Part shown: positions 59,991-64,000 of the stretch, piece by piece | How positions within the stretch are numbered: the first letter of the stretch is position 1 | Layout of the letters: every line of letters begins with the position of its first letter | Assembly: GCA_016840085.1 (NCBI GenBank) | Contig: JAEOTA010000055.1 | Location: 31,356 to 95,355 of the forward strand | Direction: 5' to 3' | From: Promethearchaeota archaeon | GTDB taxonomy: Archaea > Asgardarchaeota > Lokiarchaeia > Sigyniarchaeales > SOKP01 | DNA: 64,000 nucleotides | Made by a program: the position numbers and the translations under genes | Notes under the pieces: generated by a model | The model's input: only the letters and a program-made list of their open reading frames with translations | What the model was told of the DNA's origin: nothing | The model's database searches: none

Positions 59991-60206
59991 TTAGAAGTAT
60001 TTAATAGCTAAAAGAATATCGTCCCGTGTTATTTTTTTACGTTTTGAGTGTTTGGTTAATGTTAAAGCTGTTTTTGTCAATTTCTCAGCAGATGATCCCA
60101 ACCATTCAACCAATTCATTTACAGCATCACGAGCAACGATAATGGCCCCATTATGTTTCATTAATCTTCTAATAGGACTCCAACTTATATATTCAGAACC
60201 TGCCAT
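59991..60206 (-). CDS. Archaeal histone (HMf-like histone fold)
   Basis: PIRRLMK..GA..VA.DA...L...A..L...A.....HSKRKKI...DI.LA; strong GGAGG RBS. Confidence 0.93.
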   Translation of the reverse strand: MAGSEYISWSPIRRLMKHNGAIIVARDAVNELVEWLGSSAEKLTKTALTLTKHSKRKKITRDDILLAIKYF

Positions 60207-60734
60207 TTTTTATTCCTCCACTTTTTCAATTATTTACTTAACTTTTTAATAAATTTTATTATTTTTTAAGAGTATGTTACATTGATATGCAGCTTTTAGA
60301 TATTTAAAGATTCTTGTTCGCACTTAATTTTATGGAAAAAAAAATAAAAAAAATTATACGACTAAATTCGAAATTATGAAGTTGATCAATCTCGTGGAAG
60401 TTAGGAATTTTCTATTGATTTATTTGCTATTTGGTCTAATATTTACAAATACGTATAAATAAATTTTTTACTTATTTTTCATAAAATCGTATAATTGATT
60501 TTTAGAACAAAAGAAAATCTCAATGGTTGATAGAAAATGGCTCAAGACTATGAGTCTGATGGTAATCCTTAATAATTAATATATATTCCCCTTTAATCCT
60601 AATTTTCTTCAATTACTTTCTATTTTTTTTTTTTGAATCGAATAGGACGATTATAGAAAACTTTTTTAGTCTCCATATAATAAAATATGTTATAAATTGA
60701 AAATATGCTAGTAAAACTAGCTATAATAAAAAGA

Positions 60735-60993
60735 ACTCAATATGGGTGAATTCGTTTGATTTTTTATGAAAATGATCTTCCTAACTTAATTCATGCTATA
60801 TTGAGTATCTCATTTATGGAAGAGTCTAATAACTGTCGGGTTATTAGATCACAAGATGTACCAGCAATTTTTTTTAAAGACTTCAATTCAATGGTACATC
60901 ATTGGCTACATCATTAATAGTTCCGATGAACTAAAGTAATATTTGTTATTGATTGTTCATCGGAATTTAAACAAACTGAACTATTTCAGTTTG
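60735..60993 (+). promoter_or_regulatory. Structured 5' leader of the his operon (candidate attenuator)
   Basis: Five consecutive inverted repeats: 60735-60806, 60824-60849, 60855-60900, 60919-60967, 60972-60993; TTATAAA at 60690-60696 upstream. Confidence 0.7.
60816..60917 (+). CDS. Putative His leader peptide MEESNNCRVIRSQDVPAIFFKDFNSMVHHWLHH (or short form MVHHWLHH from 60891)
   Basis: CAT CAT TGG CTA CAT CAT TAA TAG; TAA ends 87 nt before the hisIE start. Confidence 0.7.
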   Translation: MEESNNCRVIRSQDVPAIFFKDFNSMVHHWLHH

Positions 60994-61004
60994 GGGGGTA
61001 TAAT

Positions 61005-61913
61005 ATGTTAATATTGAAAATAGATATGAAAGATCTTGAACAGATTGGAGGGCTAAGGGAGTTCATAGATGGAGTATTTATAAAACGAGGTTGGGACTTA
61101 TATATTACTCTTATTTTTAAGGCTAATAACAACAGTATTACAGCACTGATAAAAGATGGAACCCTCAAGGATGCTTCTAAAAAAATTGAATTAGGAATTA
61201 ACCTAGAGCCCAATCAAAAAGAGCTAAAATCGCTACTAAAAAAGCACGGGATAAATAGTTTAGAACTTGAATCTTATAATGAGAATGAGATTATCAACTT
61301 CAACTTAAAGATGGATTATTCACTCATAGACAATCAATTGGTAACAATTTTAAATTTTGAGAAATCAAACGGATTAATTCCAACAGTGGTACAAGACCAA
61401 AATAATAACGTTTTAATGCTCGCATATTCATCAAAAGAATCGTTAAAGCATACTATTAAAACCAAAAAAGCGACCTACTTCAGTAGATCACGAAATAGTC
61501 TTTGGATAAAAGGGGAAGAATCGGGTAATTTTCAAATCGTGAAAAGAATTTTTTATGATTGTGATGCTGATTCATTGTTGTTCACAGTAAAACAAATAGG
61601 TGTTGCATGTCATACGGGATCTTATTCTTGTTTTCGAAATATGAAATTTTCAATAAAGAATCTTTATGATATAATTAATGATCGCATTGAAAACTATGGA
61701 ATAAGAGAATCCTATAGTAAAAGACTTGCAGAAGATAATAATTTATTATTATCCAAAATTCAAGAAGAAAGTCTGGAATTGATAAATTATACTGATAGAG
61801 ATAATTTAATCTGGGAGATTGCTGATTTAACATATTTTATCCTTGTTTTAATGGCTACAAATAAAATAAATCCTGATGAAATTGTAAATGAATTATGGAG
61901 GCGAAATAAATGA
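61005..61913 (+). CDS. hisIE: Bifunctional phosphoribosyl-AMP cyclohydrolase/phosphoribosyl-ATP diphosphatase with N-terminal extension
   Basis: [38 protein letters not shown]; KIQEE, WEIADL. Confidence 0.93.
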
Positions 61914-62929
61914 AAAAAGAGTTACAAAAATCATTTCCAAAATATAAAACAAGGCAGGTAAGGCTCGCTATTCCTTCAAAGGGAAGAATGGAAAGCGAAA
62001 CTCAGGAATTCTTAAGGTCCTGCGGATTTATTATACAAAGAAACAACAGACAATATATTGGATCAATAGAGGGTCCCATTAATCTCCAACTAGTTTATCA
62101 ACGTCAAGTAGATATTGTTAGGGGGGTATTAAATGGATCACTAGAAATGGGAATAGTTGGCTACGATTTAGTTCTTGAATATTTACCCGAATATAATAAT
62201 GAGTTAATAGTTATACATGATGCGCTAAATTTTGGAAAATGCAGCCTTGAAATAGCTATTCCTGAAGAATGGCCTGAAAATTCAATTGATGAGATTAAAC
62301 AGAATAGAAAGGTAATTCGTGTTGCTACAAAATTTCCAAAGCTTACTAGGCAATTCCTAAATTCAGTTGATATAACTTATGAATTAATTGAGGGAAATGG
62401 TTCTCTTGAGGTATATCCAGAATTGGAATATAGTGATATTATAGTTGATCTTGTGTCAACAGGCCAGACATTAAAGGATAATCGTTTAAGAAGGATAAAT
62501 GGAGGTCAAATAATGACTTCTGAATCTGTACTTATAGGTAATCGTACATCACTGAAGAATGAGGCTATTTTAAAAATTGCTCGTGGATTGATTGAATATA
62601 TCGAAGCGACCTTAAGAGCCCAAAAATTTGTATCAGTTTTCGTAAACATGAGAGGAGAAAGTCGTGAAGAAATTGCTAAAGCAATTTTCTCTAAAGAAGG
62701 GCTTGAAGGTTTACAAGGACCTACAATATCTGCGGTTTTTACCAAAAATAGAGAAAAGATGTTTGCAGTTCACGTTATTGTCGAAAGAAAAAATTTACAA
62801 CAAGCGATAAGAAATCTACGAGAAATTGGTGGAAGTGGCGTAGTTGTTGCTCCAGCACTTTATATTTTTGAGGAGGAACCATTGAGATATATAAAATTAT
62901 TAAAGAATTTGGGGATGGATAGTGATTAG
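61910..62929 (+). CDS. hisG: ATP phosphoribosyltransferase, long form
   Basis: [34 protein letters not shown]-terminal regulatory domain; ATGA overlap with hisIE. Confidence 0.96.
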
Positions 62930-64000
62930 AGTATACACAACAGATGAGGCAAGAAATATTATATTAAAAAGAGAATTTATCTTCTCAAATCCAGAATTCA
63001 GTAACAACAATGTAAGCCCAGAGGAAATTGTAAGAAAAATTGTTAAAGACGTCCGGGAAAGGGGTGATCAAGCGCTCAAAGATTGGACTTTAAAGTTAGA
63101 TAAAGTGAATATAGACCAATTTGAAATAGTTAATATTGATTTTGAAGAGTGTCTCTCAACTATTAATCCGGAGTTGAAAAAAGCTTTAGAAATAGCCAGC
63201 GAGAGAATCTATAAATTTCACATGTCGCAACCAATTTTATCATGGATGAATTACAACCTTGGAGGACAATTAGGTCAAATAATTAAACCAATTAAAAAGA
63301 TAGGAATTTATATTCCAGGAGGTAAAACTCCTTTGTTTTCCTCAATATTAATGACAGCCATACCCGCTGTCGTAGCAGGAACTAAAGAGATCATCTTTGC
63401 TTCTCCCCCCGAAAATAACGGAACTTTGTCTAACATTATCCTCGCAACTTGTGGATTGATTAAACGGTTTGGTGTAAATATTCGTCTATTTAAAATGGGT
63501 GGTGCTCAAGCTATTGCTGCCATGGCATTCGGAACTGAGCAAGTTCCTAATGTAGAAAAAATTGTGGGTCCTGGAAATATTTATGTAAATTTGGCTAAAA
63601 AAGAAGTATATGGGATTGTAGGAATTGACGGAATATATGGGCCAACTGAAGTCATAATAATTGCTGATGAAACAGCAAATCCTTCATTAGTTGCTTCTGA
63701 TCTACTAGCTCAAGCAGAACATGATTCTTTAGCAATTCCTATATTAATAACTTCTGATCAAAATTTAATCTCATACGTCAAAAACGAGTTAAAAAGGCAA
63801 ATTATGGATCTGGACAGAAATGTAATCATTAAGAACTCTCTTCAAAATAAAGGTGGCATTATTTTGACAAATTCATTAGAAGAATCAATTGAAATTTCAA
63901 ATGAGTTTGCGCCCGAACATCTTTCGCTTATGATAAAAGACCCTATGACAGTTTTAAATCAAATAGAAAATGCTGGAGGAATTTTTATTGGAGAAAATTC
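62922..64000 (+). CDS. hisD: Histidinol dehydrogenase, 3'-partial (absent from ORF track)
   Basis: GTG at 62922: VIRVYT...VRERGDQAL, YIPGG, GGAQAIAAMAFGT, VGPGN, GPTE, DLLAQAEHD, APEHL. Confidence 0.95.
   Translation, partial: MIRVYTTDEARNIILKREFIFSNPEFSNNNVSPEEIVRKIVKDVRERGDQALKDWTLKLDKVNIDQFEIVNIDFEECLSTINPELKKALEIASERIYKFHMSQPILSWMNYNLGGQLGQIIKPIKKIGIYIPGGKTPLFSSILMTAIPAVVAGTKEIIFASPPENNGTLSNIILATCGLIKRFGVNIRLFKMGGAQAIAAMAFGTEQVPNVEKIVGPGNIYVNLAKKEVYGIVGIDGIYGPTEVIIIADETANPSLVASDLLAQAEHDSLAIPILITSDQNLISYVKNELKRQIMDLDRNVIIKNSLQNKGGIILTNSLEESIEISNEFAPEHLSLMIKDPMTVLNQIENAGGIFIGEN

Follow-up and report, generated by a model that had tools for sequence, protein, structure and literature searches.

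The DNA upstream of hisIE in this archaeon very probably encodes a histidine-sensing leader attenuator, as judged from its sequence and those of its relatives. More specifically, we consider it probable that this structured RNA makes up the 5' half of an attenuator through which a leader ribosome controls the hisIE-hisG-hisD operon; one helix (stem i) would gate entry to the leader, and a later helix (P4) may provide the output by way of aCPSF1. New here is the role assigned to the upstream stems, which are predicted to form the body of the translated leader, with stem i closing over the leader start. Positions are those of the window, the whole stretch of 64,000 nucleotides that was analysed, and the features discussed are as follows.

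60656-60669, plus strand: BRE and TATA-like element (TATA 60662-60669), a motif conserved at 11 loci
60707-60721, plus strand: P0, an optional 6-bp 5'-proximal hairpin formed by a palindrome; -6.4 kcal/mol
60735-60806, plus strand: P1 (stem i), over the leader Shine-Dalgarno and start, its 3' arm being leader codons 11-17; -20.0 kcal/mol
60744-60749, plus strand: leader Shine-Dalgarno GGGTGA, with the start 11 nt downstream; a GTGA-type motif occurs in most orthologs
60756-60917, plus strand: 53-codon leader ORF with a UUG start, ending HHWLHH-stop 87 nt 5' of hisIE; frame open at 17 of 17 loci
60824-60849, plus strand: P2 (stem ii), within the leader ORF; -11.4 kcal/mol, 95% of alignment cells paired
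60855-60900, plus strand: P3 (stem iii), within the leader ORF and pairing with the first His codons; -11.8 kcal/mol, 81% of cells paired
60897-60914, plus strand: control codons, two CAT-CAT pairs flanking Trp-Leu; His codons in all 17 loci
60919-60967, plus strand: P4, a 13-bp hairpin starting at the leader stop, candidate switch helix; -20.6 kcal/mol, 96% paired
60972-60993, plus strand: P5, a 9-bp hairpin adjoining the hisIE Shine-Dalgarno; 100% paired and formed at every modelled ribosome position
60993-60999, plus strand: hisIE Shine-Dalgarno, called from sequence; G-run conserved
61005-61913, plus strand: hisIE fusion with an N-terminal extension, first regulated gene (PF01502 and PF01503)
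61910-62929, plus strand: hisG (PF01634 and PF08029)
62922-63998, plus strand: hisD-like open ORF continuing past the window end, named from recognisable sequence and operon order

A histidine-tailed leader ahead of the his operon

The element lies in the 800 nt that separate hisIE-hisG-hisD from a divergent histone gene (59991-60206, minus strand), in a genome of 29.5% GC whose HisIE has its nearest named relative in a Promethearchaeota (Asgard) MAG (90% identity). Fused hisIE is present in 27 genomes according to a family-wide search; 16 of these, together with one metagenome contig, possess a His-tailed ORF ending 75-92 nt 5' of hisIE, giving the 17 loci compared here. The gene 5' of the leader changes between genomes while the leader stays with the his operon, and because the upstream neighbour differs in this way the element can be assigned to the his operon. 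Nine genomes (L008, L009, L041 and L043-L048) have a longer hisIE first in the operon and no His-tailed leader within 450 nt of it, and they are a natural control group. The element is single-copy in the host genome by both BLASTN and covariance model, which rules out a repeat or mobile element, and a covariance model of its 3' half matched only the 12 training-type loci among 151 genomes.

Several features of the surrounding genes were also recorded. The N-terminal extension of HisIE (61005-61310, about 100 residues) has no Pfam match, and a longer HisIE version of 385-410 aa occurs in some relatives. Of the 161 genomes in the class, only 32 have HisG. The sequence upstream of the histone gene (60207-60420) has copies of 78-87% identity on contigs C61, C47 and C56, which suggests a conserved promoter common to histone paralogs.

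The classical mark of an attenuator, a cluster of cognate codons ahead of a biosynthetic operon, is present at all 17 loci: the last 10 leader codons carry 3-8 His codons, almost all of them CAT. At each locus the His frame is open upstream, yielding ORFs of 36-62 codons in which indels are in frame; the remaining two frames contain 3-13 stops each per locus, and a stop-free frame is expected by chance at about 0.01 per locus (shuffled ORF). The predicted start, as aligned, sits in the apical part of stem i and is AUG in most loci and UUG in the host clade. An SD-like motif precedes it at the usual offset, the value of -11 in the host falling within the genome SD peak of -16 to -8. Because the His frame is open back to this start inside stem i, stems ii and iii in full, along with the 3' arm of stem i, belong on this reading of the frame to the coding sequence of the leader and do not make up a separate upstream RNA.

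Substitutions within the leader are distributed over the three codon positions as 49/38/41, with 17 synonymous against 49 non-synonymous changes and no third-position bias; this contrasts with hisIE, for which the corresponding values are 72/58/103 and 49 against 79. The even spread suggests that the peptide is unconstrained, and that what is kept is the frame, the His codons and the RNA.

His-tailed leaders unrelated in sequence also precede the his operon in G055 and G063. In these two genomes and in G061 the operon begins with hisC, and the unrelated leader is placed there. The leader of G055 (L209:7221-7319, in a complete genome of 6,035,313 bp) has 32 codons, a GUG start and seven His codons before hisC, and a CTCC just 5' of its His run is a possible pairing partner for the SD of either the leader itself or hisC. 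In G061 (L211:5428-5536) a one-base insertion relative to G063 stops the AUG frame ahead of the His codons, and this copy is either a broken leader or an assembly error. Leaders of other composition occur in the host genome (G000): Trp-rich ones before trpB2 and trpD (C81:42463 and C46:18058, both plus strand) and a Phe-rich one before a gene on the minus strand of C78 (offset 48976).

Structure of the leader RNA and its probable gate

An earlier sequence-only reading had drawn a palindrome and three stems in this region and had called the region an undescribed cis-regulatory RNA; each motif that it listed is found at the coordinates given. RNAfold returns the same palindrome hairpin and stems: stem i with 18 bp, one bulge and two G-U pairs, stem ii, which extends to 11 bp, and stem iii with 9 bp. 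The expected excess stability is also present, as the segment 60690-60920 folds at -53.5 kcal/mol (z -4.22) and only 1 of 200 shuffles is equally stable. The unusual density of stems is borne out genome-wide, in that a single one among 170 matched upstream windows of 211 nt from the host has a lower z (mean -0.2, sd 1.3), placing this spacer in about the top 1%. Among orthologs the z of the equivalent window ranges from +0.5 to -5.6, and the individual helices recur. At 15 of 17 loci the fold is better on the sense strand than on the antisense strand; together with the lack of conservation of the histone neighbour, this eliminates an antisense or histone-gene RNA.

The outer 10 bp of P1 are 94% paired across 14 sequences. 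In the same alignment, stems i-iii contain 11 pairs with double changes, a number exceeding all 500 shuffles and all slid controls. This shuffle control ignores relatedness, and swaps were hence counted on the HisIE tree, where about 13 independent Watson-Crick swaps are found (1 in P1, 3 in P2, 5 in P3, 3 in P4 and 1 in P5). Thus, the covariation anticipated for related his-upstream regions exists, and this conservation with compensatory changes, in an element with no Rfam match, agrees with the description as an undescribed structured regulatory RNA. Support for stem i, as the aligned sequences stand, is mainly from invariance, with one independent swap only. In the genome G067, stems ii and iii and a stem i that covers the SD are all present again, built from a different sequence. 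P5 is near-invariant. As had been suggested, GATGTA of stem iii can also pair with the second pair of His codons; this alternative register is weaker (-5.8 vs -11.8 kcal/mol).

Two further observations concern individual helices. The outer helix of stem i (60735-60741/60800-60806) and P5 (60974-60980/60985-60991) have nearly the same sequence, one base pair being different, and each adjoins a Shine-Dalgarno; the likeness may be a shared protein-binding site or chance. The arms of P4 (60918-60933 and 60955-60966) are quasi-palindromic, and in the folding model each can form its own small hairpin, possibly as a transient or alternative fold.

The 5' end of the transcript probably lies upstream of these helices. 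A BRE/TATA-like motif is kept 54-74 nt 5' of stem i at 11 loci, and with the TATA-to-TSS spacing of about 23 bp reported for T. kodakarensis (PMC4247193) it points to a start at about 60692-60694, near 60693; the earlier prediction of 60720 is therefore probably some 27 nt too far downstream. The TTATAAA at 60690-60696 is not kept and as a TATA box would place the TSS inside stem i in shorter leaders; it was rejected in that role and is probably the transcription start region. A genome-wide calibration of TATA positions upstream of ORFs and tRNAs showed no clear peak, so the promoter is called from its conservation among orthologs. P0 is present with different sequence in G147, G001, G148 and G036 and missing in G129, G113, G118 and G151. 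In one clade (L032, L005, L033 and L036) a conserved 9-mer follows straight after the TATA box, between it and the TSS, and is possibly a transcription-factor site.

Gating of leader-peptide initiation had been proposed, with stem iii as the gate. Gating itself is probable; the gate, in contrast, is stem i, which covers the Shine-Dalgarno and start (60744-60758). In computed folds, opening the leader ribosome site costs 6-8 kcal/mol before the polymerase reaches about 60810-60815 and 14-17 kcal/mol once the 3' arm is out, against a median of 6.35 and a 95th percentile of 11.1 kcal/mol for 400 SD-led genes. The leader site exceeds this 95th percentile in 7 of 15 orthologs and is weakly gated, near the gene median (6-7.4 kcal/mol), in four. 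The unrelated His leader of G063 and the host trpB2 leader also fold over their own starts (15.8 and 11.1 kcal/mol, respectively). On the modelled energies, and with modest confidence, we regard stem i as a one-shot gate or timer that admits only a co-transcriptional ribosome. Only a ribosome loaded in this way would read the leader, giving one decision per transcript. The loading window before stem i closes is only about 30 nt unless the polymerase pauses; in B. subtilis tlrB the same timing problem is solved by pausing (PMC6851288).

Proposed output of the leader and alternative readings

When a ribosome footprint is masked codon by codon along the leader, P4 is whole with the ribosome on the first His pair and partial on the last pair. 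A modelled ribosome at or just before the stop abolishes P4 at 14 of 15 loci (L031 was not scorable), a loss that is partly geometry alone and varies with the assumed footprint (10-14 nt). In the folding model, the fold that replaces P4 differs between clades.

These positions suggest how the attenuator could operate. With ample histidine the ribosome would reach the stop and P4 could not form, so that its apparently U-rich loop and 3' arm would be exposed on uncoupled nascent RNA; aCPSF1/FttA would then cleave and terminate transcription. With scarce His-tRNA the ribosome would stall earlier, P4 would form, and transcription would read through. Stems ii and iii would be melted by the leader ribosome and are probably pause or protector hairpins, stem iii engaging the His codons so that they do not pair with P4 through its 5' arm. 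Given an attenuator, the P4/aCPSF1 output is its least certain step, one we infer and put forward as plausible but somewhat doubtful. aCPSF1/FttA is a homolog of eukaryotic CPSF73.

No U-tract follows P4 or P5: an A-rich sequence comes after P4, and the SD G-run after P5. Archaeal termination needs no hairpin, and a Loki aCPSF1 terminates transcription in M. maripaludis (PMC7515710). For FttA/aCPSF1 to act, some 36 nt of U-rich nascent RNA must be threaded, and a coupled ribosome has been proposed to exclude the factor (PMC11616081). The factor was found in 5 of 5 relatives; a full-length copy (TIGR03675, PF17214) was not found with the queries used in the host assembly G000, which is probably an assembly gap.

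Alternatively, the same sensor may have a translational output, the stalled ribosome remodelling P4 and P5 and freeing the hisIE Shine-Dalgarno in the style of ermC, cat or the mycobacterial poly-Cys leaders. This is rather unlikely. The absence of a visible intrinsic terminator and the position of P5, which adjoins that Shine-Dalgarno in 14 of 14 aligned loci, agree with such an output; however, across 16 loci the opening energy of the hisIE site is no lower with a ribosome on the His codons, in equilibrium folding that is blind to kinetic or tertiary switches. Moreover, no convincing conserved helix of at least 6 bp competes with P5, the opening cost of the hisIE site (7.0 kcal/mol) is near the genome median, and a closed stem i speaks against repeated leader translation.

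The sequence-only reading itself saw the stems as an untranslated module upstream of a short leader and offered a second sensing layer as one possible role. Such a structured RNA, riboswitch-like or tRNA-sensing and placed 5' of an 8-codon leader as a second input, would account for the high stem density and for the near-invariant sequence of the stem i outer helix, yet it is very unlikely. Most of the stems lie inside the leader ORF, whose frame is open over 53 codons. The AUG at 60891 that stem iii was thought to cover lacks an SD, and relatives have ATC, GTG or TAC in its place; neither it nor AUG 60816, likewise not conserved and without SD, was retained as a leader start. Invariant positions fall in the helices, the SD, the start and the His codons, and no aptamer-like conserved unpaired nucleotides were found; loops, junctions and linkers vary freely, and stem iii can be lost, being deleted in G129. 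A second sensing layer thus finds no support. Rfam gave chance matches only, RF00514 being absent from the window at E up to 10 and from 8 ortholog loci at gathering score, and neither a T-box antiterminator motif in the 17 leaders nor an Rfam T-box match was found.

Hungry-codon frameshifting, in which a ribosome short of His-tRNA would slip at the control codons and continue in a frame leading to the hisIE start, is highly improbable. Tandem CAT codons do lie just 5' of a strong hairpin, and the +1 frame of G102 terminates 2 nt short of the hisIE ATG, but at 16 of 17 loci each of the shifted frames meets a stop 28-97 nt upstream of hisIE, and the leader has no constant frame relative to hisIE. 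A ribosome slipping to +1 would usually advance about 8 codons into P4, which leaves room for a minor role of frameshifting at most. Finally, it is extremely improbable that the ORF makes a functional His-rich small protein (e.g. a metal-binding one) with hairpins that tune expression or protect the mRNA: despite 36-62 codons, its own SD and some recurring residues, its substitutions look protein-neutral, its length varies by up to 26 codons, and it always lies directly 5' of the his operon at a near-fixed distance.

Implications and known systems

If the favoured reading, a histidine-sensing attenuator with termination as its output, is true, an Asgard archaeon uses regulated premature termination read out by transcription-translation coupling. 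The logic of the leader requires a ribosome trailing RNA polymerase, and the locus would thereby be a natural test of functional coupling in the lineage closest to eukaryotes. It is possible, though on balance unlikely, that Lokiarchaeia perform a once-per-transcript, bacterial-style attenuation with archaeal parts, in which a self-closing helix and the ribosome position set the exposure of U-rich RNA to aCPSF1/FttA. The leader would also test the proposed exclusion of FttA by the ribosome (PMC11616081). According to a 2014 transcriptome paper, archaeal attenuators lacked direct experimental support (PMC4247193); our literature search, which covered few subscription journals, found no ribosome-based leader attenuator described in archaea and none for Asgard his operons. 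With its anatomy fixed (start, promoter and helices), the element is testable as a 350-nt reporter cassette.

The element looks like the bacterial ribosome-based amino-acid sensors, without an intrinsic terminator, and is not RF00514, a T-box or a known riboswitch. With the enterobacterial hisL attenuator (RF00514, His_leader) it shares a cluster of His codons in a leader ORF, a series of hairpins and an unconstrained peptide sequence. It differs in its archaeal host, in having no sequence or covariance-model match to that family, and in the absence of a GC hairpin and U-tract terminator. The hisL leader has 16 codons, whereas the leader here has about 53 with the His codons at the very end.

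The E. coli trpL leader is similar in that its control codons lie a few codons before the stop, which itself sits where the next pairing segment begins; there, as in the folding model of the present leader, stalling lets a hairpin form and a ribosome at the stop keeps it from forming (PMC1183508). Unlike in trpL, no intrinsic terminator can be recognised in the alternative structure of the present element, and a local helix encloses the start of the leader together with leader coding sequence. In B. subtilis tlrB (yxjB), a later-forming structure likewise blocks leader translation, so that the ribosome has to load co-transcriptionally within a time window; that system, in contrast, senses macrolides via an arrest motif, covers both the leader and the downstream SD with one hairpin, and combines NusG pausing with a NusA-dependent terminator (PMC6851288), whereas no pause site was identified here.

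The mycobacterial poly-Cys leaderless sORFs (Ms5788A) also carry their cognate codons C-terminally in an sORF of about 30-50 codons, some 90 nt from the regulated gene and with a very stable fold lacking a terminator/antiterminator pair (bioRxiv 10.1101/834739). In those sORFs the Cys tract pairs directly with the downstream SD; in the present element the partner of the His tract lies upstream, in stem iii, and an SD precedes the leader. Within the archaea, TrpY and Tar likewise provide amino-acid-responsive control of biosynthetic operons; they are, however, DNA-binding proteins that act at initiation, in contrast to an RNA leader read by the ribosome (PMC6737238).
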